From Candidatus Latescibacterota bacterium (GTDB lineage Bacteria > Latescibacterota > UBA2968 > UBA8231), in contig JADZBP010000161.1 in NCBI GenBank assembly GCA_020852055.1, positions 9,493 to 73,492 on the forward strand: 64,000 nucleotides of DNA, given 5' to 3'. Positions within the stretch are counted from its first letter, which is position 1. Every line of letters starts with the position of its first letter. The notes beneath the pieces are model-generated. The model ran no database searches. It was not told where the DNA came from and saw nothing but the letters and a program-made list of their open reading frames with translations. Positions 7,220 through 47,858 of this stretch are shown here, piece after piece. Position numbers and translations under genes: made by a program.

Positions 7220-7465
7220 GGGGTGCCCACTTCGGGCGTCTCTGTAGTCCCGGATCCGCGACACCAGATAGATGGTGTCGCGCCCATCACACCCCCTCCG
7301 TCCCCGCAACGCCCCATCCGTTGGGGCGTTGCGTCCCCTCGCTCCTTAAACTACGCTTCCCCTCATCCCCTCCCTGCGATCCTTCCCCCAGCCTCTCCCC
7401 CAGAGACGTCCTTCGGGGCACTCCCTCGGCCCTGACTGAGCCTCCAGGATCTCTCCCCCGCCGCA
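7220..7465. repeat. dispersed C-rich mosaic repeat, family B, copy B3
   Basis: Shares ordered boxes with 35112-35254 and 42950-43163: GGGG.TG.CCCACTTCGG, CCCTCGCTC, CTCCCC.AGA...CCTTCGGGGC. Contains an 11-bp hairpin GCAACGCCCCA/TGGGGCGTTGC at 7306-7332. Lies in an unusually long (365 nt) intergenic gap. Confidence 0.55.
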
Positions 7466-9131: not shown

Positions 9132-9875
9132 TCAGGCCTGGTTGCTGAAGGGGCGGTACCAGATGTTGCGGTAGCGCACCAGGTCGCCGTGATCTTGCAG
9201 TTTGAGCGGGCCGGTGGAGGGATGGGGCTCGTCGTAGTTGGACAGGCTGCGGTGGCCGGTGGGCCCCAGGGTATCCTGATGGTGATGCACCACCACGCCG
9301 TTGTGGAAGAGGGTCAGCGAAGAAGGGCTGATGAGTTTGCTGCCCTCGAAGCGCGGGGCGATGAAGACCGCGTCGTAGGTCTGCCACTGGCCCGGAGCGC
9401 GGCAGGCGTTGACCAGGGGCGGGTACTGGCCGTAGATGGAAGCGGTGATGCCGTCGGCGTAGGTGGGGTTCTGGTACCCGTCGAGCACCTGGATCTCGTA
9501 GCGGCCCAGCAAAAAGACCCCGCTGTTGCCGCGGCCCTGGCTGTCGCCCTTGACCACGCTGGGGCAGGCGAATTCGAGGTGGAGCTGGCAGTCGCCGAAG
9601 TGCTCCTTACTCTCGATGTCGCCGGTGCCGGGGACCACCTCGGCGTAACCGTGTTCGACCTTCCATTTGGCCGGGCCCTTGTCCTTGACGCTGAGCCAGC
9701 CGGACAGGTCCTTGCCGCCGAAGAGCACCACCGCGTCCGAAGGCGGGGCGCCGGCCTGGTCCTGGGTGCTGGCGGTGCCGGGGGTGATGATGCGGGGCTG
9801 GGGTCGGGTGCTGTCGTGCACCCGCCATTTGCCGCCGGGAAGGAAGGGGGTATCGTCGTAGCCGAGCTGTGCCAT
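9132..9875 (-). CDS. DUF1080 (3-keto-disaccharide hydrolase-like) domain protein
   Basis: Start at MAQLGYDD (ATG 9875, AGGAGA upstream). Has GNSGVFLLGRYEIQVLD and GPLKLQDHGDLVRYRNIW, characteristic of DUF1080 jelly-roll proteins. Confidence 0.8.
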   Translation of the reverse strand: MAQLGYDDTPFLPGGKWRVHDSTRPQPRIITPGTASTQDQAGAPPSDAVVLFGGKDLSGWLSVKDKGPAKWKVEHGYAEVVPGTGDIESKEHFGDCQLHLEFACPSVVKGDSQGRGNSGVFLLGRYEIQVLDGYQNPTYADGITASIYGQYPPLVNACRAPGQWQTYDAVFIAPRFEGSKLISPSSLTLFHNGVVVHHHQDTLGPTGHRSLSNYDEPHPSTGPLKLQDHGDLVRYRNIWYRPFSNQA

Positions 9876-17807: not shown

Positions 17808-18878
17808 CTAGTCCGCAAAAAGTGCGGGGTCGGGGGGTTTGAGGGGGAAGCGGGGCACCACTCCTTTGTTGACGATATTCTCGGGTGGGGGCAGATGGCC
17901 GCTGAGCACACTCACCAGATTCCGGACCCCGGTGCGGGTGCAATCCTGCGAGGCCTGCACCGAGAGGCCGGAAACGTGCGGGGTGAGGAGGACGTTGTCG
18001 AGTTCGACCAGCGGATGGCAGGGGGGCGGTGGGTTATCCACAAAGATCTCGATGCCCTCGAAGGTGTCGATGCCGGCCCCGGCCAGATGGCCGCTCCTCA
18101 GGGCTTCGACCAGGGCGTCTTCGTCCACCAGCGCGCCGCGCGAGGTGTTGATCAGGATCGCGCCGGGTTTCATCTTGCGCAGGGCCGCCGCGTCGATGAG
18201 GTGGCGGGTCTCGGGGGTGAGGGGCAGCTGCAGGGAGACGAAGTCGGAGCGGCGCAACAGGGTGTCGAGGTCCACCATCTCCACCCCCAGTTGCTCGGCC
18301 TGCTGGCGGCCGGCGTTCATGTTGCGGCGGGTGGCCAGCACCCGCAGGCCAAAGGCCTGGGCGCGGCGGGCGACCTCGGGACCGGTAGCCCCGAAGCCGA
18401 CGATGCCCAGGGTCAGTCCGGCGAGGCGGGGCAGGGCCAGGGATTCGTCGCGGGCCCTGCCAAAGGCGCCGGCCTTCAGGTATCGTCCCATCTGCGGCAG
18501 CTTGCGCGCCAGGCCCAGCAGCATGGCCAGGATGTGGTCGGCCATCTCGGCGACGCAGAAGAAGGGGGCGTTGGTGACGAGGATGCCCTTCTTGGTCGCC
18601 AGGTCCACGGCGATCTTGTCCGTCCCGTTGCCCAGGCGCGAGATGAGCCGGCATTTTTCGAGGCGCTCGACCATCTCGGCCTTGAGCGGGGCGGAGATGA
18701 TGAAGAGGGCGTCGCAGTCCCGGAGGTGAGGGAGCTGTTCTTCGGGGGTGTTGGCCTCGACGCGCAGCGGGCTCAGGTCATATTGCCGGTGCAGGCCCTC
18801 CTCAAAGGGAGAGATGGGCATGAGAGTGGCGTTGAGGCGAACGACCTTGAAGTGCTGGAGATGATGCCACCTGCTCAT
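17808..18878 (-). CDS. D-isomer-specific 2-hydroxyacid dehydrogenase family protein
   Basis: Start at [12 protein letters not shown] (ATG 18878). NAD site [22 protein letters not shown], and catalytic-histidine context TPHVSG. Confidence 0.85.
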
Positions 18879-18906
18879 TGACGATAACCACCAAAGGTGA
18901 AGCGCC

Positions 18907-19058
18907 GGGGCACAACCCCTTCGCTCATGACGTTCAATCCTTCGGATTGACGGTCTTCGACACTCGCCGGCCATCCCTGGCCGGCTCCGAGGTCTATCCT
19001 CCGGGGCGCAGTCCTGCGCCCCTTGGAGGACCGAAACCCGCTCAGGGGCAGTCGCCCC
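18907..19058 (-). repeat. structured intergenic element, family A, copy A1 (possible cis-regulatory RNA or REP-like element)
   Basis: Shares a conserved core with 41499-41616 in the same orientation. Two hairpins are retained through compensatory substitutions. Ends 28 nt upstream of ATG 18878. Confidence 0.6.
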
Positions 19059-19081
19059 GTCGTCTCTTCTGTTAGAAAACG

Positions 19082-33334: not shown

Positions 33335-35080
33335 TCAGCCTCCGTTGGGGCCGGGGCCCAGTTGGGAGGCGTAGATCTCCTGGTAGATGGGGCTGGATTG
33401 CAGCAGTTCTCGGTGGGTCCCCTCGGCGGCGAGGCGGCCTTTGTCGATGACCACAATCTTGTCGGCCTTGAGCACGGTGCTGATGCGCTGGGCCACCACG
33501 AAGCAGGTGCGGCCTTCCATCCAGGCCTCCAGCGCCTCCTGGATCTTGGTTTCGGTCTCCACGTCCACCGCGCTGGTGCTGTCGTCGAGGATGAGGATGG
33601 CCGGGCGGGTGAGCAGGGCGCGGGCAATGGCCAGGCGCTGCTTCTGCCCGCCCGAGAGGTTGACGCCGCGTTCCTCGACCCGGGTGTCGTACCCCTGGGG
33701 CAATTCGAGCACAAAGTCGTGGGCCTGGGCGGCCCGGGCGGCAGCCACCACCTCCTCGTCGCCGGCGGTGGGCCGGCCGTAGCGGATATTGTCGCGCACC
33801 GTGCCCGAGAAGAGCACCGTCTCCTGCGGCACCACGCCGATGTGGTCCAAGAGCGAATCCTGCTGGATCTGGCGCAGGTCCTGCCCGTCAATGAGGATGC
33901 GGCCGGCAGTGGGGTCGTAGAAGCGCGGGATCAGATTGACCAAGGTGCTCTTGCCTGCCCCGGTGGCGCCCAGGATGGCCACGGTCTGCCCCGGCTCGGC
34001 GACCAGGTCGATGTCCTCCAGCACGATGGTCTCGTTCGAGTCGTGGTAGTGGAAGCCGACCTTTTCGAAGACCACCCGCGGCCGGGCCGAGGCGGGCAGA
34101 GGCGGGGCTCCGGGCGCATCCTGCACCTGGGGCACGGTGTCGAGCACCTCGTTGAGGCGCTCGGCCGAGACGATGCCGGCGGCCCAGACATTGGCCAGCA
34201 TGGTCATGATCATCAGCGGCCCGATGGCGGTTTGGAGATAATTGACGAAGGCCACGATCTGGCCGATGGTCACCTCGCCGTGCATCGCCTGCACCCCGCC
34301 GGCCCAGATGACCACCACGATGCCCACGTTGATACAGGCGCTGAGGGCCGGCCCCATGGTGGAGAGGAACTCCACGACCCGGATATTGCGCTCGGTGAAA
34401 TCCTCGTTGGCTGATTCGAAACGCGCGGCTTCGTGGTCGGCGCGCACGAAGGCTTTGACCACCCGCACCCCGGAGATGTTCTCCTGCAGGATGGTGTTGA
34501 GCCGGTCGAGTTTCTGCTGCATGGTCAGAAAGAGGGGCCGCATCCGGGTGATGAAGTAGACGATGATGCCCGAGGTGAGCAGCAGCAGGGGCACCACCAC
34601 CAGGGCCAGATGGCGGTCGGTGATGAACATCAGCGCGATGCTGCCGACCATCAGCAGGGTGGCGCGGGTGCCGATGCGCAGGGAGACCTGCACCACCCTG
34701 AGCATCGCCCCCGAGTCGCTGGAGAGGCGCACCATCAGCTGGCCGGTCTTGAGCCGGTCGAGATTGCCGTAGGAGAAGGATTGAACCTTGAGGAAGAGGG
34801 CCTCGCGCAGGTCGCGGGCCACCCCCTCGCCCACCTGCACCGAGAAGTTGTTGTTGCCGATGGCGAAGAGGGTGCTGGCCACCGAGATGGCCAGCATCAA
34901 CAGGAAGGTGTGCCAGACCTCCTCCATGTCACCGGCCAGGATGCCCTGGTCGATGATGTGCTGCACCAGGCGGGGGATGGCCAGGTCGAGGACCACGACG
35001 ATGACCAGCAGCACCAGCGAGAGCACACTCTTCTGCCAGTAGGGTTTGACGAAGGGCAGCAGTTTGAGGACGTGTCGCAT
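33335..35080 (-). CDS. ABC exporter half-transporter (TMD-NBD), degenerate catalytic site
   Basis: Start at MRHVLKLLPFVKPYW (ATG 35080). Walker A GATGAGKST, signature LSGGQKQ, Walker B ILILDDSTS (Asp replaces the catalytic Glu). Confidence 0.9.
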   Translation of the reverse strand: MRHVLKLLPFVKPYWQKSVLSLVLLVIVVVLDLAIPRLVQHIIDQGILAGDMEEVWHTFLLMLAISVASTLFAIGNNNFSVQVGEGVARDLREALFLKVQSFSYGNLDRLKTGQLMVRLSSDSGAMLRVVQVSLRIGTRATLLMVGSIALMFITDRHLALVVVPLLLLTSGIIVYFITRMRPLFLTMQQKLDRLNTILQENISGVRVVKAFVRADHEAARFESANEDFTERNIRVVEFLSTMGPALSACINVGIVVVIWAGGVQAMHGEVTIGQIVAFVNYLQTAIGPLMIMTMLANVWAAGIVSAERLNEVLDTVPQVQDAPGAPPLPASARPRVVFEKVGFHYHDSNETIVLEDIDLVAEPGQTVAILGATGAGKSTLVNLIPRFYDPTAGRILIDGQDLRQIQQDSLLDHIGVVPQETVLFSGTVRDNIRYGRPTAGDEEVVAAARAAQAHDFVLELPQGYDTRVEERGVNLSGGQKQRLAIARALLTRPAILILDDSTSAVDVETETKIQEALEAWMEGRTCFVVAQRISTVLKADKIVVIDKGRLAAEGTHRELLQSSPIYQEIYASQLGPGPNGG

Positions 35081-35111
35081 CAGAGGGGGTCCACCGGGTT
35101 TTCGTTGCGAC

Positions 35112-35254
35112 GGGGAGCGACCCGCTCCGGCCTTTCCCAAGGCGCGTCCTGCCCCCTCGCTCGCACAGCTCCGCTACTCCACCACCCCACCACGCGGACT
35201 TCCCTTCCCGACCACTCCCCAGGGAAAGTCCTGCGGGGTCATCTCCCCGCCGCT
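35112..35254. repeat. dispersed C-rich mosaic repeat, family B, copy B1
   Basis: Aligns box-for-box with 42950-43097 and 7220-7435. Ends exactly at ATG 35255. Confidence 0.55.
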
Positions 35255-36133
35255 ATGGGTACGCAATCCATATTTGACGCGCCGGTGGCACCACAGCAAT
35301 TTAAGGAAATGCCAACCTTTGAACATGCTGTCGCCAAAATCGCCTATCATGGCCAGGGCGCCGGGCCGCCGGTGCTCTTCATTCAGGGGGTGGGGGTGCC
35401 CGGTGGTGGCTGGGGCCCGCAACTGGAGGGCCTGGCCGATCGCTTCCACTGCGTTGCCTTCGATCACCGCGGCCTGGGCGGGAGCAGTCCGGTGGAGGGC
35501 CGGCTGCACCTCGCCGACCTGGTGGGGGACACCCTGGCCCTGATGGACGAACTGGGCTGGGACGACGCGCATCTGGTGGGCCACAGCATGGGCGGGGTCA
35601 TCGCCCACCAGTTGGCCCTCGACGCCCGCAGCCGGGTCCGCAGCCTCTCGCTCCTGTGTACCTTTGCCCGCGGCAAGGACGCGGCGCGTCTGAGCCCCTG
35701 GATCGCCTGGGTGGGCCTGCGCACCCGCGTGGGTTCGCGCGCCATGCGCCGGCGGGCTTTCCTCGAAATGATTTTGCCTGCCGCAGTGCGCCGGGGTGCC
35801 AATCTGGAGGCCCTGGCCACCCACTACGGCACCTTCTTCGGGCGCGACCTGGCCGAGCAGCCGCCGGTGGTGATGAAGCAGTTGCAGGCCCTGGCCGCCC
35901 ACGACCAGCGGGCCCGCTTGCCCGAGCTGGGGGGGCTGCCTACCCTGGTGGTCAGCGGCGCCGAGGACCGGCTGGCCCTGCCGGCGTACGGCTGGGCCCT
36001 GGCCGGAGCCATCCGCGGGGCGCGGTACTATCAGTTCGCCGACGCGGCCCACGGCCTGCCCCTCGCCCAACCTGAACAGGTCAACACGTTGCTGGCCGAA
36101 CACCTGGCCGCTGCCGAAGCCGGCCGCTCCTGA
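35255..36133 (+). CDS. alpha/beta hydrolase fold protein
   Basis: PPVLFIQG, nucleophile elbow GHSMGG, C-terminal AAHG. An alternative start at ATG 35309 (MPTFEH) is possible because 35255 abuts the repeat and lacks an RBS. Confidence 0.8.
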   Translation: MGTQSIFDAPVAPQQFKEMPTFEHAVAKIAYHGQGAGPPVLFIQGVGVPGGGWGPQLEGLADRFHCVAFDHRGLGGSSPVEGRLHLADLVGDTLALMDELGWDDAHLVGHSMGGVIAHQLALDARSRVRSLSLLCTFARGKDAARLSPWIAWVGLRTRVGSRAMRRRAFLEMILPAAVRRGANLEALATHYGTFFGRDLAEQPPVVMKQLQALAAHDQRARLPELGGLPTLVVSGAEDRLALPAYGWALAGAIRGARYYQFADAAHGLPLAQPEQVNTLLAEHLAAAEAGRS

Positions 36134-39119: not shown

Positions 39120-40451
39120 CTACTCCTTCAGCGGGTGGGTGATCTTCACCACGATCGGGTTCTTCCACTCCCACATGTTGTAGATGCGGTGGGCACTCAT
39201 CACCGACAGGTGCAGGCCTTTTTCGTCCTGGTGCCAGCGCGGGGTCGGGTCGAGGCTGGGGCGGTACTCGAGGATCTTGCCGGCGTGGCCGAGTACCTGC
39301 ACCTGGGTCTGCTCGCTGGCCCGCACGCTTTTCAGGGTGAAGTTGAGGCGGCGGCCGTAGGTGCGGTTGGGGTCCTTGGTGCCGGCGGCGTCCTCGGCCG
39401 CGGCCCAGTCGATATTGGTGACCATGGCGTATACCGCGTCTTCGTTTTTGGCGCAGGTGAACCACACGTCGCCCTCATGGGTCACATGCCGGGGACGCAC
39501 CTGGTAGATGGCTTCGCGATTGACGAAGAGCCACAGGCCCATCTCGTTGATACGGCCGCTTTGTTCAGGAGCCAGCTCGCCGTCGGGGCGCGGGCCGACG
39601 TTCAACAACAGATTGCCGCCCTTGGCGCGGGTTTCGATCAACATCTGGATCAGGGTCTGCCCGGACTTGTAGTTCTCGTTGGTGGGTTTGAATTGCCACT
39701 GGGTGCCCATGGTGAAACAGCTCTCCCAGGGGCCGGCCAGGGGCGCGTCGGGCAGGGTCTGTTCCGGGGTGGCGATGGCCCCGCGGGTGACAACGATCTC
39801 GGGCTGCAGCTGCCAGGCCAGTTCTTTGAGACCCTCGGGCTGGCCGTCGAGGAAGAGCATGTCGATGGGCCCGTACCCGGTCAGCAGCTCGCGCAACTGG
39901 GCCAGGTTGGTCTGCATGAGCCGGGGGTTGTTGAGTGGATCGGCCTCGGGGGTGCCGCGGTTGATGGGGATGCCCTGCTGCCAGAGCACGTGGAAATCGT
40001 CGGGGGAAAAGTAGATGCCGATACCGATGCCCTGCTTGCGGAAGGCGTCGAAGAGCAGGCGGGTCAGGTCGTGCGGGTAGGGCGTATGCATGATGCCGAA
40101 GTCGGTGGTCCGGGTCTCGAACATACAGAACCCGCTGTGGTGTTTGGTGGTGAACACCACGTACTGGACCCCGGCCAGCCGCGCCTGGCGGGCCCACTCG
40201 TCGGGGTCGTACTTGTGGGGATAAAAGGTGCGCGGCAGTTCGGTGAAAAAGCGCTCGGCGTAATCGGGCGAGGCACCCACCAGGGAATGGCTGATCACCA
40301 TGCCCAGTTGGGAGTCGAGGCTCCAGTGGATGAAGAGGCCCAGGCCCAGATCCTGGAACCATTCGAGGCGTTCGGGTTTGTTGCCCGAGGTCTGGCTGGC
40401 CCGGGTGGCTTCCAGATCCTGCTCGCCGCCGTCCTGCGGGGTCTTAGTCAT
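39120..40451 (-). CDS. alpha-L-fucosidase (GH29)
   Basis: 443 aa. FGLFIHWS, KHHSGFCMF, YFSPDD and LLLNVGP are typical GH29 blocks. Confidence 0.85.
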   Translation of the reverse strand: MTKTPQDGGEQDLEATRASQTSGNKPERLEWFQDLGLGLFIHWSLDSQLGMVISHSLVGASPDYAERFFTELPRTFYPHKYDPDEWARQARLAGVQYVVFTTKHHSGFCMFETRTTDFGIMHTPYPHDLTRLLFDAFRKQGIGIGIYFSPDDFHVLWQQGIPINRGTPEADPLNNPRLMQTNLAQLRELLTGYGPIDMLFLDGQPEGLKELAWQLQPEIVVTRGAIATPEQTLPDAPLAGPWESCFTMGTQWQFKPTNENYKSGQTLIQMLIETRAKGGNLLLNVGPRPDGELAPEQSGRINEMGLWLFVNREAIYQVRPRHVTHEGDVWFTCAKNEDAVYAMVTNIDWAAAEDAAGTKDPNRTYGRRLNFTLKSVRASEQTQVQVLGHAGKILEYRPSLDPTPRWHQDEKGLHLSVMSAHRIYNMWEWKNPIVVKITHPLKE

Positions 40452-40485
40452 AACCGTACTCCTTGAGGGTGTCTTCGTCGAAGCC
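40448..40485. repeat. left copy of a 38-bp direct repeat bracketing the mazEF cassette
   Basis: TCATAACCGTACTCCTTGAGGGTGTCTTCGTCGAAGCC matches 41109-41146 at 36 of 38 positions. On the minus strand it encodes a relic ...GFDEDTLKEYGYD* and contains the fucosidase ATG. Confidence 0.8.
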
Positions 40486-40520: not shown

Positions 40521-40853
40521 TCAACCAAGCTCCAACCACAGTTTCAGTGAGATATCGACCTGTCCGGCATCAGCAGGAGCTAGCCGGCCGACAGACTTGA
40601 TGACCAGCGAGGAGTGTACCGTGTAGAGCCCGCGTTTTACGGCGGTGGGGACATTGAGCCCCGCCCCTCGCCAGTCCGCGAGCACGAATTCACCGGTCAG
40701 TAGCGAGTCCGTGCGGCTGGTAAGGGGGAGGATGAAGAGGTCCTGCGATTCGAGGGAAGCACTGACGATGGTGGCAGGGCGGACTTTGGTGCTGGAGAGA
40801 TCTGAAAAAGGATAACGTACCAGGACCAGGTCATTCTTTGAGTAGCTGGGCAT
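40521..40853 (-). CDS. mazF: PemK/MazF family toxin
   Basis: 110 aa. VLVRYPFSDLSSTKVRPATIV N-terminal signature of the MazF/PemK fold. Confidence 0.8.
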   Translation of the reverse strand: MPSYSKNDLVLVRYPFSDLSSTKVRPATIVSASLESQDLFILPLTSRTDSLLTGEFVLADWRGAGLNVPTAVKRGLYTVHSSLVIKSVGRLAPADAGQVDISLKLWLELG

Positions 40854-41034
40854 AAATCTCGTCTTCCGGGTTATCCCAGACCGTGGCCAATGAGGCCTGG
40901 CTGGCTTGGGTCCAGAAAGAGGAATCCTCGTCAGTGGTCAGGGTGACCAATACCTTGCTCCCTTCCGGGAGGTCCAGGTGCTCCAGCAGCTCGATCTTCC
41001 CTTCGTGAACCACGGCCCAAACGGTGTTAAACAT
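40831..41034 (-). CDS. DUF104/AF2212-like antitoxin
   Basis: 67 aa. VVHEGKIELLEHLDLPEGSKVLVTL is the typical DUF104 beta-hairpin. Overlaps mazF by 23 nt. Confidence 0.65.
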   Translation of the reverse strand: MFNTVWAVVHEGKIELLEHLDLPEGSKVLVTLTTDEDSSFWTQASQASLATVWDNPEDEIYAQLLKE

Positions 41035-41104
41035 CGATCACGCTCCTGCGCTAGGTGCCTCAAATATACCTCATCGGAAGGACATCTCAAAAGCACCGTG
41101 GGGG

Positions 41105-41473
41105 TCACTCATAGCCGTACTCCTTGAGGGTGTCTTCGTTGAAGCCCATGAAGTGGGCGATTTCGTGGACCAGGGTGATTTCGATCTCCTCCACCAACTC
41201 TTCCAGGTCGGGGAAGTCTTCCTCCAGGGGGCATTGGTAGAGGGTAATCATCGCCGGCATTTCGCCGCTGTCGTCGAGCCGGCGTTCGGGCAGGGGGGTG
41301 CCGCTGAAGAGTCCGTAGAGCAACTCGTCGGGATCGCCGGTGATCTCCTCGACGACCTCGGGGTCGGGCCAGTCCTCGATGACGATGGCCACGTTCTGCA
41401 TGGCCTGCTGGAAGGGCTGGGGGATCTTCGCCAGGGCGCGCTGGACCAGCTTTTCGAAACGGTGGCGATTCAT
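41105..41473 (-). CDS. zinc metallopeptidase-like protein (DUF1025/zincin family)
   Basis: Start at MNRHRFEKLV (ATG 41473). HEIAH (HExxH) motif. Acidic protein of about 122 aa. The track's 274-aa ORF runs on through repeat A2. Confidence 0.7.
   Translation of the reverse strand: MNRHRFEKLVQRALAKIPQPFQQAMQNVAIVIEDWPDPEVVEEITGDPDELLYGLFSGTPLPERRLDDSGEMPAMITLYQCPLEEDFPDLEELVEEIEITLVHEIAHFMGFNEDTLKEYGYE
41109..41146. repeat. right copy of the 38-bp direct repeat (functional 3' end of the metallopeptidase gene)
   Basis: TCATAGCCGTACTCCTTGAGGGTGTCTTCGTTGAAGCC. On the minus strand it encodes ...GFNEDTLKEYGYE*. Confidence 0.8.
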
Positions 41474-41498
41474 CGGTGGTTCCTCAACAGTGGGCATC

Positions 41499-41616
41499 GA
41501 GGAATAGCCCCTTCGCTCATTCTCGCGCCCCATCCCTGGGGCGCTCCGAGGTCTGTCCTCCAGGGCGCAGTCCTGCGCCCTTTGGAGGACCGAAATCCGC
41601 TCCGGGGCTACTCCTC
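41499..41616 (-). repeat. structured intergenic element, family A, copy A2
   Basis: 13-bp closing helix GAGGAGUAGCCCC/GGGGCUAUUCCUC on the minus-strand RNA, enclosing the two conserved hairpins. Ends 25 nt upstream of ATG 41473. Confidence 0.6.
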
Positions 41617-41676
41617 GCCGCTTGGCTCGGGCTCTAGCCGGCAGGCCGAGTAATGAAACAGTGTCATATCCAATGG

Positions 41677-44600
41677 TCAAAACAACGAAAGCTGCTCGGC
41701 CTCGGCGCGGCGGGGCGGTTCGATGGTTTCTTTTACCAGCAGCGCGGCGGGCAACTCGCGCACGAAGGAGGAGAGGGCGGATTCGAGTCGCTGCCCGTAC
41801 TGTTGCCGGCTGCGGGCGGCCACCAACACCAACTCCTCGCGCGCCCTGGTGAGGCCCACGTAGCAGAGCCGGCGCTCTTCTTCCAGGGTTGCTCCGTTCA
41901 GTGGCAGCAATCCCTCTTCCATCCCGCACAGAAAAACCACCTCGAATTCGAGCCCTCTGGCCGCGTGCAGGGTGAGGAGGCGCACCGCCTCCACGTTGGT
42001 GCTGCGGCGCTCGTAGTCGGCACCAACGCCCAGGGCTACCGTGGCTAGCAATTCTTCCAGTGAGTTCGCCTGCTCGGCCAGTTGGGTTAGGCGCGATAGG
42101 TCCTCATCCTGCCCGTACTCCTGCTGATAGCGGCGCACCAGAGCGGCCGGGGTTTCCTGTTCGGCGAGGCGGCGGTACTCTGCGGCGGCGGCGCACAGGG
42201 TCCGGGCTTCGGGCAGGGTCTCGGCCGCCACCGGGCGGGTCAGTTTCCGGGCCAGCTCGTTTATGGCTTGAGGGCCGGGGTTGAAGGCAGGCAGTTCGAG
42301 GGCCTGGAGCAGGCGCAGGGGTTCCTCGGGTTGGAGCACAAAGCGCAGAAAGGCCAGGGCCTGGCGCACGGGCGGGGCAGCGAGGAAACTCTTCTCCCCC
42401 AGCAGGTGGTAGGGCAGGCCGGCGTGCAGGAAACACTCCTCCAGCATCTGGGCCTGGGCGTGGGTGCGGAAGAGCACGCCGAAGTCGGCGAGGCTGTGCG
42501 CCTTTTTGCTGCGCCCGCTCTGGCGGTCGGACTGCACCATGTCGGCCCCGCCCACCATCCGGCTGATCTCCTGGACCACGGCGATACCCTCGGCCTTTTC
42601 GCCCGGCACCGAGAGCAGACGCAGTTGCGCTCCGCCCTGGCGGGCCGGCCGCAGATGCAGGGGCTGGCGGCCGGGGTTGTGGGTGATGAGGGCAGCGGCG
42701 GCCTGCACGATGGGGGCGGCACAGCGGTAGTTGACTTCGAGATGCACGAGGTGGGCGGCGGGATAATCGGCGAGCAACCGGGCAAAACAGGAGGCATCGG
42801 CGCCGCGGAAACCGTAGATGGCCTGGTCCGGGTCGCCGATGACAAAGAGGCCCTCGCCGCTGCCGGCCAGGGAACGGACGATCTGGTACTGGACCAGGTT
42901 GAGGTCCTGGAACTCGTCGACCAGCACCTGGGTGAAGCCGAGTGACGGTCGCGCCAGGGGATGGCCCACTTCGGTTTTTCTCCAGGCGCGCCCTTCTCCC
43001 TCGCTCGCTATCGCTCCGCTACCCGGCCCCCAACCACGCGGGCTTCCCAGCCCCGCCACTCCCCGAGAAAAACCTTCGGGGCCATTCCCCTGCCGCTCGA
43101 GCAAACCCTCGGGGTCACCTCCCCGCCCCTCGATCATATCCTCAGAGTCATCTCCCGGCCGCTCGTTACGACCGGAGAAATCTTCGTCGCTGGTTTCCAG
43201 CAGATCGAGAAAATCCAGCAGGATCTGGTCGTAGTCCCAGACCTCGTAGCGAGCGAGTTGCTCCTGGTACGCGGCGTAGACTTGTCCCAGTTTTTCATCT
43301 GCCAGTTCTTCTGGTTTCTGGCCATGGGCCTTGGCCTGCATGATGCCCTCGTGTGCGGAGGCCAGGGACAAGCTGACCCCGCTCTCGGCCAGGGCGCGGG
43401 AGAGCAACTGGCGGCTCTCCCATTCGTCGAGCACGGGTTTGAGCGGCAGGCCCAGGTCGGCCATCAGTTGCAGGGCCACCTGATGGAAGGTGCCCACGTG
43501 TAACTCGGCCAGGGCGGCGCCATCGCCGAGCAGGGTTTCGAGGCGCTGGCGCAGTTCAGCGGCGGCCCGTCGGGTGAAGGTGAGGGCCAGGATCTGGCCG
43601 GGCGCAACGCCGCGCTGGCCGATGAGATGGGCGATGCGCTGGGTGAGGGTGCGGGTCTTGCCCGAGCCGGGGCCGGCCACGACCACCACCGGCCTGCCTT
43701 CCATCTCCACGGCCTGCTGTTGGGCCGGATCGAGGTCAGGGGCCACAACCGCAGCGGGCTCCGGGGTATTGGGCGAGGGAGCCTGCGCCGCCACGGTCGG
43801 TGCCTGGGGCGCGGGCGTCGAGGCCGGCAGGGCAAAGAGCAGCTTCTGCCCTTTGAGTTGTTGGCGCTCCTCGTCGGTGAAGAGCTGGATGACCCCGTAC
43901 TCGCCGTCGTACCCGGCGGCGATCTGCACCTGGCCGGTGCGCATGCGCCGCACCCCCTCGGCCACCAGATGCTCACCGGTGGCGGCAATCGCTTCGGGGG
44001 TGGCGTGGCGCAGGATGTACAACTCGGGACCCAGGCTGGCCAGCAGGTGTTGGTACACCGCCTGCACCCTCTTGCTGGCGGGGCCGCTGCCCAGGGCCGA
44101 GCCGATCACCTCGGGCAGGGGGATGAGGTACTCGCAGGGGCGTTTGGGCCCCTCGCCCTCGGGCCGGTCGGCCAGGAGTTCGACCCGGTGCAACACCCCC
44201 ACGGTCAGTTGCTGGCCACAGACCGGGCAGCGGCCCCCGGCGGCCAGGGTCTGCGCGGGTCTCCAGCGCACCTGGCAGTTGCGGTGGCCGTCGCAGTGGT
44301 ACTTGCCCTCCTCGGGGTAGAACTCCAGGGTGCCGGTGAACTGCGCCGGGTCGCGGCTCCTGAGGGCCGCCAACATGGCCGAATAAGAGAGGTCGGTGTC
44401 AAAGCAGGTGCCCTCGCGGGCCAGCTTCTGGGGGGAATGGGCATCGGAATTGGAGACCAGGGCAAAGCGGTCCAGCTCGGCGATGCGGCTGTTCATCGGC
44501 GGGTCGGAGGAGAGGCCGGTCTCCACCGCCGGGATATGGGGCAGGAGGTCCTCGTAACACTCCTCCAGGCTGTCGAAACCCGAGGCCGAACCCAGGGCGG

Positions 44601-45111
44601 CGAAGTGCGGGGTCCAGATATGGGCCGGGATGAAGAGCACCTCGGGGCAGACCTCCAGGCAGATCTCCAACAGATCCCGACTGTCCAGCCCCAGGATGGG
44701 CCGTCCGTCCGACTTGAGATTGCCGATGGCCCCCAGCCGCCGGTTGAGGGCCTCCACCTCGGCAAAGCCAGGCATGACGACCACGTTGTGCACCTTGCGG
44801 GTGCGGCCGTTTTTCTTATAGATGGAGCTGATCTCCACGCTGAGGACGAAACGCACCTCGGCCAGGCACGAGGGCGGCAACTGGGCTTCGACGGGGATGC
44901 GCCAGGTGTCCTTGAGGCGGTAGAGGCCCTCTTCGGCCGGCTCCAGTTGCTCCTGCAACTCGGCCAGCCAGGCCGGGTGGGTGAAGTCGCCGGTGCCCAC
45001 CACGGTGATGCCCTTGAGGGCCGACCAGCGGTGCAGGTTCTCGGGGTTCAGGTCGCGACTGGTGGCCCGGGCGTAGCGGGAGTGGAGATGGATGTCGGCG
45101 ACGAAGCGCAT
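41677..45111 (-). CDS. fusion protein: EndoQ-like PHP-domain nuclease (N-terminal) plus UvrD/PcrA-type SF1 helicase (C-terminal)
   Basis: N-terminal part has DIHLHSRYARATS, NSDAHS and a zinc ribbon CDGHRNC...CPVCG, as in the endonuclease Q/TIGR00375 family. C-terminal part has AGPGSGKT, LTFTRRAA, VDEFQD, GDPDQAIYGFRGA, and LTLHAARGLEFEVVFL. Confidence 0.8.
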   Translation of the reverse strand: MRFVADIHLHSRYARATSRDLNPENLHRWSALKGITVVGTGDFTHPAWLAELQEQLEPAEEGLYRLKDTWRIPVEAQLPPSCLAEVRFVLSVEISSIYKKNGRTRKVHNVVVMPGFAEVEALNRRLGAIGNLKSDGRPILGLDSRDLLEICLEVCPEVLFIPAHIWTPHFAALGSASGFDSLEECYEDLLPHIPAVETGLSSDPPMNSRIAELDRFALVSNSDAHSPQKLAREGTCFDTDLSYSAMLAALRSRDPAQFTGTLEFYPEEGKYHCDGHRNCQVRWRPAQTLAAGGRCPVCGQQLTVGVLHRVELLADRPEGEGPKRPCEYLIPLPEVIGSALGSGPASKRVQAVYQHLLASLGPELYILRHATPEAIAATGEHLVAEGVRRMRTGQVQIAAGYDGEYGVIQLFTDEERQQLKGQKLLFALPASTPAPQAPTVAAQAPSPNTPEPAAVVAPDLDPAQQQAVEMEGRPVVVVAGPGSGKTRTLTQRIAHLIGQRGVAPGQILALTFTRRAAAELRQRLETLLGDGAALAELHVGTFHQVALQLMADLGLPLKPVLDEWESRQLLSRALAESGVSLSLASAHEGIMQAKAHGQKPEELADEKLGQVYAAYQEQLARYEVWDYDQILLDFLDLLETSDEDFSGRNERPGDDSEDMIEGRGGDPEGLLERQGNGPEGFSRGVAGLGSPRGWGPGSGAIASEGEGRAWRKTEVGHPLARPSLGFTQVLVDEFQDLNLVQYQIVRSLAGSGEGLFVIGDPDQAIYGFRGADASCFARLLADYPAAHLVHLEVNYRCAAPIVQAAAALITHNPGRQPLHLRPARQGGAQLRLLSVPGEKAEGIAVVQEISRMVGGADMVQSDRQSGRSKKAHSLADFGVLFRTHAQAQMLEECFLHAGLPYHLLGEKSFLAAPPVRQALAFLRFVLQPEEPLRLLQALELPAFNPGPQAINELARKLTRPVAAETLPEARTLCAAAAEYRRLAEQETPAALVRRYQQEYGQDEDLSRLTQLAEQANSLEELLATVALGVGADYERRSTNVEAVRLLTLHAARGLEFEVVFLCGMEEGLLPLNGATLEEERRLCYVGLTRAREELVLVAARSRQQYGQRLESALSSFVRELPAALLVKETIEPPRRAEAEQLSLF
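42950..43196. repeat. family B repeat copy B2 plus three tandem 33-34-nt units, read in frame inside the helicase gene
   Basis: 42957-43097 aligns with B1 and B3. Units at 43064-43097, 43098-43130 and 43131-43163 share CGA.(C)AAA.CCTCGGGG.CA.CTCCCC.GCCGCT. Translated on the minus strand they give 11-aa repeats (ERPGDDSEDMI / EGRGGDPEGLL / ERQGNGPEGFS). Confidence 0.7.
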
Positions 45112-45176: not shown

Positions 45177-47858
45177 ATGTCAAAAGTCTGGATGACCAGC
45201 GGGTTCGAGGGCTTCAGCCAGGGAACCCCGGGCAACGCCGGCCACAATCTCTATGTCTCCCGGCAGGGCATCCTGCAGCGCATCCACCAGTACGACCTGG
45301 ATGGCGACGGGTACCTGGATCTGGTCTTCTGCAACAGCCAGGACCACTGGGAGAAGGCGCCGGCCTATGTGTACCGCCACCTGGCCGGCGCGGTGGAGCG
45401 CCTCGAACTGCCCGCCGACGGGGCGCAGACCGGGGTGGTGGCCGATCTGGACGGGGACGGGTACCCGGATCTGGTGCTGGGCATGGAGCATGACGGCATC
45501 CGCGCCGACCTCAATACCCGCATCTACTACGGCTCCCCCGAGGGATTCGGCGAAAAGCGCCAGCAGCGCCTGCCCGTGCCCCGGTGCAGCGGGGTGGCGG
45601 CCGGTGACTTCGACGGGGATGGGAGGGTGGATCTGGCCTTTCTCAGCCAGGGCTGGCTGCGGCTCTTTGCTCAGAGCCGCCTGGGCTTTGAGCCCAAGCA
45701 GTACCGCGACCTCGAAATCTGCGGGGAACAACTGGCTGCTGCGGATCTCGATGGGGACGGTTGTGCCGAGTTGGTAGTGCGCGAGAAGGGCGGCGAGGTG
45801 AAGGTGTACTGGGGCGGCCCCGGCGGCCTGGACCCCAATCGCTGCACCCTGGTGCCAGTGGCGGTGGACCCTCCTGCAGCCCAGGAAGTGGGACGCGCTC
45901 CCGAGTACGTGCCTCCGGCCGGGGCCCTGGTGCAGGTGCTCTATCTGCTCGGGGTGCCGCATCTCTTCGTCGCCCGTGTCCGGCAGGTGTTGCTGGTGCC
46001 AGTGCAGCAAGGGCGGCACTGGGGACAACCCCTGGTGCTGGAATGCCCCGACGCCTTGAGCGCGGCGGCTGCCGATCTGGACGGGGATGGGTACGAGGAG
46101 GTGGTGTTGGCCTGCCGGCAGGCGGGGCCCGAACAACACTCGTGGATCTACTGGGGCGGGCCGCAGGGCTTCGATGAAGAGCGCCGCCAGGCCCTGCCCA
46201 GCAAGGGGGCCTGCGACGTGGCCATCGGGGATGTGGACGGGGATGGACAATTGGAGATTGCCCGGTGCCAGGGCGCCGGCGAGGAATCCTTCAGCACCGA
46301 ATCCCTGGTATACCGGGCCACGGGTGAATGCCTGGCCCGGCTGCCCAGTGAGGATGCGCGTCGGATCTTCGTTGTCCCTGTCGGTCCGGAAACGCCGGCC
46401 CAGGTGGTGCTGGTCAACCACTACAGCCGCGATGCCCTGGGTAATATCCCGGTTTCGGTCTTTCCTGGCGGCGCCGAGGGTTTTGATCCGGAGCGCCCGC
46501 GGCAGTTGCCTGGCTGGGGTGCGGTGGAGGCCCTGTGCTGCGACGTGGACGACGACGGGCGGGTGGAATTGGTGCTGGCCAATGCCTCGGAGAACGCCAT
46601 CCGCCGCGATCCGGGGTCCTATATCTGGAAGCCGCGCCATCGGGGCCCGTACCCGCAGCCCGACTGGGTGTTGCCCACCACCCGGGCGCACGGGGTCTGT
46701 TGTGCCGACCTGAACCGCGACGGGTACCTCGATCTGGTCTTCTGCGGGTTCAACAATCCCGAGTTGCTGATCTTCTACGGGCGGGAGGGGGGTTTCGATC
46801 TGGAGCACCCGGTGCGCCTCCGCCTCGAATACGAGGGGGTGGTTTACCCGGAGCCGCGCTGGATCTACCTGGCCGACCTCAACCAGGATGGCTGGCTGGA
46901 CCTGGTGGTCCCCCAGATCGCCGCCGAGCGCAGCTTCGTCCTGTGGGGCGGCCCCAAGGGGTTCAGCATGGCGCGCTGCCAGGCCCTCTCGGTCTTCCAC
47001 GCCGCCTGCGCCCGCGCCGCCGACCTCGACGGGGACGGCTGGCCCGAACTGATCCTGGGTGGCCACATCCCTTCGGATCAGGGGCCGCACGATTCTTTCA
47101 TCTATATCTACTGGAATGGCCCGCAGGGTTTGAGCGAGAGCCGGCGCACCCTGTTGCCCGCGGCCGGGGTGAATGCCCTGAGTGTGGCCGACTTCGACGG
47201 GGACGGCCACCTCGATCTCTTTGCCTGCTCCTACCACGACGGCCGCCAGCGCGACATCCCCTCGTATCTCTACTGGAACCGGCCGGGGCGGGGGTTCTCG
47301 GAGAACGACTTCACCCGCCTGCACACCCATTCGGCTTCCGGGTGTGTGGCCTGGGATTTCGACGGGGATGGCCGGGTGGACCTGGCGGTGGCCAATCACA
47401 AGGTGGAGGGGGACCACCGCGGCTACTCGGAGGTGTGGTGGAACAGCGCCGAAGGGTTCTCCGAAGACCGCACCACCCGGTTGCCGACTTCGGGTCCGCA
47501 CGGCATGTGTGCGGTGGAGCCGGGCAACCTGCTCGACCGCGGCCCCGAGGAGTATTATGTTTCCGCGCCTTTCAAGCTGTCGCCCGGCCATCACCTGAGC
47601 GAGGTATCGTGGGACGCTCAGGTGCCGCCCCAGAGCTGGGTGGGCCTGCAACTGCGCTGCGCCGCCACCCGCGCCGGCCTGGACCAGGCGCCCTGGCAGG
47701 GACCCGATGGGCAGGGGAGTTGGTGGAGGAACTACCAGCAGGTCCGCGGCATGAAGGGTAAGTGGGTGCAGTACCGCCTGGCCCTGGGGGCGCGCCAGTG
47801 CGGGGCCAGCCCCCGGGTGCGCGAGGTGGCCATCTTCTACGACGAGATCGGAGTCTGA
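45177..47858 (+). CDS. FG-GAP/VCBS repeat protein (integrin-alpha-like beta-propellers)
   Basis: 893 aa with at least 10 D-x-D/N-G-D-G calcium-loop repeats (DLDGDGYLDLVF, DLDGDGYPDLVL, DFDGDGRVDLAF ...). No obvious signal peptide. Confidence 0.8.
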   Translation: MSKVWMTSGFEGFSQGTPGNAGHNLYVSRQGILQRIHQYDLDGDGYLDLVFCNSQDHWEKAPAYVYRHLAGAVERLELPADGAQTGVVADLDGDGYPDLVLGMEHDGIRADLNTRIYYGSPEGFGEKRQQRLPVPRCSGVAAGDFDGDGRVDLAFLSQGWLRLFAQSRLGFEPKQYRDLEICGEQLAAADLDGDGCAELVVREKGGEVKVYWGGPGGLDPNRCTLVPVAVDPPAAQEVGRAPEYVPPAGALVQVLYLLGVPHLFVARVRQVLLVPVQQGRHWGQPLVLECPDALSAAAADLDGDGYEEVVLACRQAGPEQHSWIYWGGPQGFDEERRQALPSKGACDVAIGDVDGDGQLEIARCQGAGEESFSTESLVYRATGECLARLPSEDARRIFVVPVGPETPAQVVLVNHYSRDALGNIPVSVFPGGAEGFDPERPRQLPGWGAVEALCCDVDDDGRVELVLANASENAIRRDPGSYIWKPRHRGPYPQPDWVLPTTRAHGVCCADLNRDGYLDLVFCGFNNPELLIFYGREGGFDLEHPVRLRLEYEGVVYPEPRWIYLADLNQDGWLDLVVPQIAAERSFVLWGGPKGFSMARCQALSVFHAACARAADLDGDGWPELILGGHIPSDQGPHDSFIYIYWNGPQGLSESRRTLLPAAGVNALSVADFDGDGHLDLFACSYHDGRQRDIPSYLYWNRPGRGFSENDFTRLHTHSASGCVAWDFDGDGRVDLAVANHKVEGDHRGYSEVWWNSAEGFSEDRTTRLPTSGPHGMCAVEPGNLLDRGPEEYYVSAPFKLSPGHHLSEVSWDAQVPPQSWVGLQLRCAATRAGLDQAPWQGPDGQGSWWRNYQQVRGMKGKWVQYRLALGARQCGASPRVREVAIFYDEIGV

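Follow-up and report, generated by a model that had tools for sequence, protein, structure and literature searches.

Between co-directional genes on its minus strand, the 64,000-nucleotide stretch analyzed here (contig JADZBP010000161.1 of a Candidatus Latescibacterota bacterium, positions 9,493 to 73,492; the whole stretch is referred to as the window) carries two copies, A1 and A2, of a structured intergenic element, and the question raised by this locus is whether such a conserved fold in front of a start codon is a regulatory leader or an inserted repeat. An earlier note on this DNA had described a two-copy element, with the implied reading of a leader in the 5′ untranslated region of the genes downstream, a view that had to be given up in light of seven more copies, of empty sites in relatives and of copies between convergent genes. 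We conclude that A1 and A2 are probably copies of a small (∼133 nt) non-coding, non-autonomous palindromic mobile element, termed family A, which is found in a clade of uncultured Latescibacterota. The element is a dispersed repeat with insertion polymorphism, shares its terminal arms with a second family (family B) of which one copy lies in frame within a gene, harbors nested hairpins, and folds in a strand-specific manner.

The flanking genes of both copies are arranged as previously described: On the minus strand, A1 follows a Creatininase gene and precedes a 2-Hacid_dh gene (17808–18878), A2 follows a PHP/UvrD helicase gene (open reading frame (ORF) 41677–45111) and precedes a Zincin_1 gene (41108–41473), and 25–28 nt separate each element from the downstream ATG (at 18878 and 41473, respectively). 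We compared both sites with related sequence, which consisted of contig fragments of ∼236 kb in total. A1 is a recent insertion, present in this genome only, between the genes of a creatininase-family protein and a 2-hydroxyacid dehydrogenase. Its site is empty in four related lineages (L137/L138, L139–L142, L144), in which the two genes lie 1 nt apart or overlap, with the sequence TGA-T-ATG where the junction was read, and whose 2-Hacid_dh proteins are 85–89% identical to the window protein. Relative to the empty site, the window junction contains a 203-nt insert composed of 20 nt, the element, and 23 nt. The more distant L143 (78%) has a creatininase–dehydrogenase spacer of 51 nt (996–1046) that includes a 29-nt remnant of the family A 3′ end (AATGAGCGAAGGGATCGCTCCTCGACGCC) in reverse orientation, which is why this junction seems to have been hit independently. 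The A2 site is filled in four lineages (the window, L005, L132, and L133) and empty in L136, L134, and L135, where the gap between the helicase and Zincin_1 genes measures 1, 9, and 2 nt, respectively. Moreover, L136 has an insertion in its helicase gene, described below, without A2, and L133 has A2 without the helicase insertion; consequently, the two were gained or lost independently of each other. A search for a conserved target motif yielded only a preference for A before GCGGCG, and the unique sequences flanking A1 and A2 have no match among the other loci examined.

The RNA sense of both elements corresponds to the minus strand, with A1 spanning 18899–19065 (167 nt) and A2 41491–41623 (133 nt). 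The shared core reported in the earlier note was recovered by a repeat search of the window (family D9) as an ungapped 87-nt block of 87% identity, and its motifs occur within the 64 kb at the A1 and A2 sites only (0.06–0.08 expected). An 18–20 bp closing stem lies outside the originally reported core, hence both units are longer than had been noted. The fold of family A, whose G+C content is 0.65–0.75, consists of this closing stem around a ∼95-nt core that forms a three-way junction with two hairpins. The arms of the closing stem have the consensus GCGGCGGGGAGUGAGCCCC (5′) and GGGGCYGCUCCCCGNCGC (3′), the junction strands read UGAGCGGAUUUC, AGACCUCGGA, and GAGAAUGAGCGAA in 5′ to 3′ order, hairpin A conforms to GGUCCUCC-AA-GGGGCGC[AGGAYU]GCGCCCC-GGAGGAC, and hairpin B to GCCGGCC[AGGGAU]GGCCGGC. 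A covariance model scored at all window positions matched only A2 (148.9 bits) and A1 (89.9 bits), followed on the sense strand by a match of 14.9 bits.

In A1, for which the whole element with closing stem, three-way-junction core, and nested extra hairpin reaches 103 bits with covariance model R1, the 5′ arm AGACGACGGGGCGACUGCCCC (19045–19065) shares homology with the 5′ arm of every A and B copy and pairs, including one G·U pair, with the 3′ arm GGGGUUGUGCCCCGGCGCUUC (18899–18919). Junction J1/2, UGAGCGGGUUUC (19033–19044), contains GAGCGG and UUUC, which are invariant in eight of the nine distinct family A copies; L133 has a nested hairpin there. Hairpin A, GGUCCUCC-AA-GGGGCGC[AGGACU]GCGCCCC-GGAGGAU (18996–19032), differs from A2 by one G:C to A:U double change, and its closing G·U pair is present on the minus strand only. 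In junction J2/3, AGACCUCGGA (18986–18995), CCUCGGA is invariant in all nine copies and the preceding AGA differs in L132. Hairpin B, GCCGGCC[AGGGAU]GGCCGGC (18966–18985), has three pairs swapped in A2 and in L005, and its loop is invariant in all copies. The paired changes described in the earlier note were thus found again at the DNA level: Its hairpin 1 reads GCCGGCCA-TCCC-TGGCCGGC in A1 and GCGCCCCA-TCCC-TGGGGCGC in A2, with three swapped base pairs and the same loop, and its hairpin 2 shows a single G:C to A:T double change. Junction J3/1 comprises a conserved block, AUGAGCGAA (18920–18928), in which AUGAGC is invariant, and a 34-nt insert private to A1 (18929–18962), which forms a fourth stem, GACCGUCAAUCC-GAA-GGAUUGAACGUC. 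The extra hairpin CAATCC-TTC-GGATTG, which had also been noticed before, falls within this insert, which has no counterpart in other copies and no match elsewhere in any locus examined. A2 (R1 148.9 bits), between the helicase and Zincin_1 genes, has its 5′ arm at 41604–41623, hairpin A at 41555–41591, hairpin B, GCGCCCC[AGGGAU]GGGGCGC, at 41525–41544, and its 3′ arm at 41491–41511, all on the minus strand; the arms form 18 bp, including two G·U pairs and one mismatch.

Beyond A1 and A2, family A comprises seven copies in metagenome-assembled genomes (MAGs) of Latescibacterota and in lake metagenomes, and their neighbor genes are unrelated. One pattern scan of a species-representative genome collection yielded three of them (L001, L003, and L002). 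L001 and L003 are both located in the Latescibacterota MAG Baikal-deep-G198, and L002 is located on contig CAMAVQ010000074.1, titled Gemmatimonas phototrophica; since the latter contig is syntenic with L001 and encodes nearly identical proteins, L002 stems from a close relative of the Baikal-deep-G198 MAG, and the contig is probably mis-binned or mislabelled. A pattern scan of metagenomes added L005 and L007 along with two chance hits, and the contigs of helicase homologues named Candidatus Latescibacteria provided the A2 orthologues L128–L131 (identical to L005), L132, and L133. The assemblies with copies include GCA_016187725.1, GCA_005801785.1, the MAGs Baikal-deep-G198 (SICG01) and MaH-09apr19-249 (CAMAVQ01), and the 120-kb contig Ga0194128_10000161. 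L001, L002, and L003 sit between convergent genes with no gene downstream; in L001 and L002 the convergent gene pair is the same, and the whole unit including the arms is oppositely oriented. L002 additionally has a family B copy beside its family A copy.

The nine distinct copies strengthen the proposal of a fold maintained by compensatory changes. The loops AGGGAU and AGGAYU are unchanged throughout, hairpin B is conserved, and the junction strands are kept except for small changes in L132 and for the hairpins nested in L133 and L007. Drift in the closing stem has been compensated, and L132 has a 17-bp hairpin A stem that is mostly different in sequence and nevertheless retains the loop AGGAUU. 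In the alignment of the nine copies, which is biased to the structure of the model to which it was fitted and partly misaligned around insertions in A1, L007, and L133, 95.3% of the cells are paired compared with ∼41% when partners are slid, and 24 of the 49 pairs have changed on both sides; the observed values were reached by none of 500 shuffles. As a refutation of its own proposal, the earlier note had envisaged copies in random position and orientation with substitutions that do not preserve pairing: Position and orientation indeed vary, but the substitutions do preserve pairing. We then considered on which strand this pairing exists. Minus-strand folding of A1 and A2 is much more stable than that of shuffled sequences (z of −5.4 and −4.1, respectively). 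When the copies are folded singly, all nine of family A are more stable as the minus-sense strand than as the complement, by 2.9–19.7 kcal/mol, and with the eight examined copies of family B included, the advantage of the sense strand holds for 17 of 17. G·U pairs in the minimum free energy folds of family A number 26 in sense and 6 in antisense, and in the nine-copy alignment G·U combinations outnumber A·C combinations by 19 to 5. The stability of the sense strand and the excess of G·U pairs imply that selection for pairing acts on a single-stranded molecule with the polarity of the minus strand, which may be either RNA or single-stranded DNA.

Weak full-length matches of the covariance model revealed family B (∼150 nt), which has the arms of family A around a different core. 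It amounts to about a dozen copies in the 236 kb, two in the window and ∼10 in related loci, and throughout this sequence the arm motifs are confined to the A and B copies. We also considered an insertion of cores into pre-existing empty hairpins and rejected it: There are no arm-only palindromes in the window, and the arms are homologous among copies instead of being derived from the target. B1 (35104–35255, minus strand), detected by its weak full-length R1 match and as repeat D17, lies between the divergent genes of an ABC transporter (∼33335–35080, minus strand) and an alpha/beta-hydrolase (plus strand) and has many G·U pairs on the minus-sense strand only. B2 (42948–43098, minus strand) lies in frame within the PHP/UvrD helicase gene, just before helicase motif II (VDEFQD), and is translated into LERQGNGPEGFSRGVAG...GHPLARP. 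This insertion is present in the homologues P0002–P0006 and missing from P0007, P0009, P0010, P0012, and P0041, which are 60–84% identical overall (60–86% in the comparison with the window protein). Upstream of the B2 insertion, the window helicase additionally has a partial duplication of 22 residues (ERPGDDSEDMIEGRGGDPEGLL). The strand asymmetry of family B exceeds that of family A, with 64 G·U pairs in sense and 8 in antisense and a more stable sense strand in eight of eight copies.

Two mini-hairpins, C (CGCAACGCCCCATACGTTGGGGCGTTGCG) and D (AGCCGGGCGGGCCGCGAGTGCCCGCAGCGGCT), are nested inside B and A copies, and C also stands alone at 7305–7333 of the window. A perfect 29-nt mini-hairpin, CGCAACGCCCCAT(A/C)CGTTGGGGCGTTGCG, recurs both alone and within family B copies; its sites are window 7305–7333, L132 12013–12041 and 14246–14271, L133 9338–9366, L137 14992–15018 and 19974–20002, and L139 16110–16138. 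The 32-nt mini-hairpin D is found in the family A copies L007 and L133, each time directly 3′ of GAGC or GAAGC, entering directly after the AUGAGC of J3/1.

These observations led us to the following mechanistic picture. Family A would propagate without target-site duplication, and it would do so through, or be selected in, a single-stranded form of fixed polarity (the window minus strand), be it RNA or single-stranded DNA, the folded structure of which would be recognized by the mobilizing or copying machinery. Such a requirement for the fold, combined with gene conversion between copies, would explain both the compensatory substitutions and a core that is more conserved than synonymous sites. 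Judging from their sense orientation, A1 and A2 would be co-transcribed within their operons and would place a very stable junction between two formerly translationally coupled cistrons. The downstream gene would then depend on its own Shine–Dalgarno sequence in the 20–23 nt beyond the element, and effects on the stability or processing of the mRNA would be a by-product, as with REP and Correia elements.

Several findings weigh against a mobile element of this kind. None of the filled sites shows a target-site duplication when A1 and A2 are compared with the empty sites, and the palindrome of A1 is bordered by 20 and 23 nt of unique sequence that are absent from the empty site. No autonomous partner or transposase was seen in the genome fragments (∼236 kb). 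The copy number looks low: The 64 kb of the window hold two family A copies, 88 kb of related loci have none beyond those at the A2 site, and in the species-representative collection the pattern matched two MAGs only. Conservation is higher in the core than in the arms, which is the reverse of a classical MITE (miniature inverted-repeat transposable element). Moreover, at the A2 site the 96-nt core differs between the window and L005 at three positions (97% identity), whereas third codon positions are 64% identical at the 3′ end of the helicase gene and 77% identical in Zincin_1, and the spacer outside the A2 element cannot be aligned. Unless gene conversion is common, a copy that is purely selfish and decaying would not be expected to stay conserved to this degree: Either purifying selection is at work, or other copies frequently act as donors in gene conversion. 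L132 favors conversion or recombination, since this copy is a mosaic of L005-like arms, a hairpin B of the majority type, and a replaced hairpin A stem. Conversion leaves the constancy of the two loops unexplained.

The same conservation is what speaks for a domesticated functional RNA, in which the core is kept by host selection as a protein-binding or processing element in mRNAs and mobility is only the route by which it arrived. This could take the form of a CsrA/Rsm-type platform with GGA in two loops, or of a structure that is processed by RNase III or blocks exonucleases and thereby sets the expression ratio of the cistrons. Besides the three differences per 96 nt in the A2 core as opposed to 64–77% identity at third positions, it would account for loops that are invariant in nine of nine copies despite the stem replacement in L132 and the swaps in hairpin B; the operon-internal copies are all sense-oriented, and the G·U pairs point to a fold at the RNA level. 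Hairpin B reads CCAGGGAUGG and fits CANGGANG, the known CsrA/RsmE site. Our searches gave this idea a further hint as well as its limits. In agreement with the earlier note, which had recognized no known RNA family, the whole window has no match in Rfam at gathering thresholds, and permissive E-value searches with A1 and A2 returned only sub-threshold matches at chance level, the best of which was RsmW (RF02809). With a gathering score of 52, this nearest near-miss stays far below the threshold at A1 (26.1 bits) and reaches no more than 12.8 bits at A2. In addition, no csrA gene was seen in the ∼236 kb searched, the neighbor genes are not related in function, A1 is confined to a single genome and relatives manage without it, the mosaic L132 suits gene conversion better than selection, and family B tolerates being translated inside the helicase gene. 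On balance, we consider a domesticated RNA possible but unlikely. Hammerhead and HDV-like (hepatitis delta virus-like) cores did not fit by eye, and self-cleaving ribozyme families were absent from the Rfam output.

A dedicated cis-regulatory leader, i.e., a riboswitch or attenuator for 17808–18878 and 41108–41473, would agree with the sense orientation of both window copies 25–28 nt upstream of a start codon and with a three-way junction of conserved junction nucleotides and covarying stems. It conflicts with the empty sites, with neighbors that are unrelated, and with the copies between convergent genes: In L137, L139, and L144, the genes that flank A1 in the window are separated by 1 nt or overlap without any leader, three relatives have no element at the A2 site, the downstream genes (2-Hacid_dh and Zincin_1) are unrelated, and L001, L002, and L003 have no gene downstream. 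Neither an Rfam match nor an intrinsic terminator nor a conserved expression platform was found at A1 and A2. We also examined a coupled upstream ORF that starts at the conserved AUGAGCGAAGGGG and whose UGA overlaps the downstream AUG, as is true for A1, A2, and L005, and rejected it: A 1-nt length difference breaks this short ORF in L132, and it is inapplicable to the copies between convergent genes. Taken together, a leader is extremely improbable. The compact, very stable ∼133-nt unit, its closing stem, as found in many small RNAs (sRNAs), its few occurrences per genome, and GGA-rich loops that recall Rsm-type sponge RNAs could also suggest independent multicopy genes of trans-acting sRNAs, each with its own promoter and terminator. 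A scan limited to sigma-70-type sites found no such promoter at A1 or A2, nor was there an intrinsic terminator or a U-tract after the closing stem; copies occupy gaps between genes of only 1–10 nt, which leave no room for a promoter, and family B lies within coding sequence. The missing promoter and terminator signals together with gaps of a few nucleotides make independent sRNA genes very unlikely.

A mobile element thus being the reading that we prefer, we asked which known elements family A resembles. By analogy, the closest kinds appear to be bcr1, RPE, and REP elements, with bcr1 as the nearest. This non-coding mobile element of the Bacillus cereus group (∼155 bp) is transcribed with neighboring genes and distributed differently in the genomes of related strains, and compensatory changes keep its multi-stem structure at the RNA level (PMC3184786). 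Family A is similar in size, likewise non-coding and dispersed, and its RNA-level structure is also kept by compensatory changes. However, bcr1 is flanked by 5-bp direct repeats, which A1 and A2 lack, and it occurs in AT-rich Firmicutes, whereas family A is a Latescibacterota element of 65–73% G+C; the two have no similarity in sequence, and family A differs by its three-way junction within a long closing stem and by its invariant loops containing GGA. RPE (Rickettsia palindromic elements) are repeats of 100–150 bp with no known transposase that are located between genes as well as in frame within genes (PMC10969869). This recalls B2 in the helicase gene, although an in-gene copy was seen for family B only and not for A, phylum and base composition are different, and in family A the core, with its strand-specific RNA-like fold, has been conserved better than the ends. 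REP/BIME/REPIN elements are G+C-rich extragenic palindromes that often lie between convergent genes or in operons, without target duplications, and that, when transcribed, can stabilize or destabilize the upstream mRNA (PMC3184786). Family A shares with REP (and SMAG) its G+C-richness, the lack of target duplications, and its locations in operons and between convergent genes, but REP units are 21–65 nt long, RAYT-associated, and present in hundreds of copies, in contrast to a complex junction of 133–167 nt in apparently few copies.

Correia/NEMIS and ERIC elements, which are classical MITEs, are short, non-autonomous sequences bounded by inverted repeats; their transcripts form stable stem-loops and can undergo RNase III cleavage or change the decay of mRNAs (PMC10969869). 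As in MITEs generally, family A is shorter than 500 bp (133–167 nt) without coding capacity, its arms of 18–20 nt are within the range of ∼4–30 bp for terminal inverted repeats, and it is dispersed with presence/absence differences between related genomes. It is nevertheless not classed as a strict MITE, since it lacks target-site duplications and AT-richness (criteria in PMC10969869); its termini are, furthermore, less conserved than its interior. With RsmW and the Csr–Rsm sponges (RF02809, clan CL00106) it has GGA in several hairpin loops in common, but differs in its sub-threshold score, in that neither a sigma-70-type promoter nor an intrinsic terminator was found, and in its repeat-like dispersal with insertion polymorphism. 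Unlike a riboswitch, it has no coherent set of downstream genes and is not kept at the orthologous leader of relatives. Searches beyond these classes returned nothing of the kind: The translated family A consensus had no match in a set of 5.8 billion protein sequences, plasmid and phage records contained nothing similar to the element, a strict pattern had no match in viral records (a looser one gave 120 irrelevant loci), and our literature search found no paper on repeats of the family A/B kind in Latescibacterota.

For annotation, the analysis removes a false riboswitch or leader candidate, and an uncultured phylum gains at least two repeat families that had not been catalogued (A and B), along with the nested mini-hairpins. 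Such repeats split operon junctions, make spurious reading frames, and can occupy real genes. Several of the features described here are rarely combined, namely the lack of target duplication, insertion into 1-nt gaps between coupled genes, selection for pairing on one strand only, an interior that is more conserved than the termini, and the same termini around different cores, and this combination points to a mobilization or copying mechanism via RNA or single-stranded DNA. A more far-reaching version, which we regard as speculative and quite unlikely, is that family A represents a new strand-specific mobile RNA or single-stranded DNA element whose GGA-loop junction binds its own mobilizing enzyme or a CsrA-type regulator, whose insertions rewire the post-transcriptional control of operons, and whose arms serve as a scaffold for the interchangeable cores A and B with the nested mini-hairpins C and D. 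If the GGA loops prove to be protein-binding, family A would be a natural case of a regulatory RNA module spread by transposition.

Two further repeats were noticed in the window. A 47-nt direct repeat of 87% identity (40439–40485 and 41100–41146) duplicates the 3′ end of the Zincin_1 gene, and between its copies lies a two-gene module of ∼660 nt with the ORFs 40521–40853 and 40831–41034, both on the minus strand. One of these has a weak PemK/MazF-like toxin match (20.4 bits, below the Pfam cutoff); the other encodes 67 residues that weakly match AF2212-like proteins. Since the genes for Zincin_1 and fucosidase directly overlap in L133, the module of the window looks like an inserted toxin–antitoxin-like cassette with a duplicated junction. 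Finally, at least eight copies of a 40-nt coding repeat, CGACCTGGA(T/C)GG(C/G)GACGGGTACC..GATCTGGT, are found at 45293–47228, where they correspond to ordinary FG-GAP/VCBS-type repeats of a large secreted protein.

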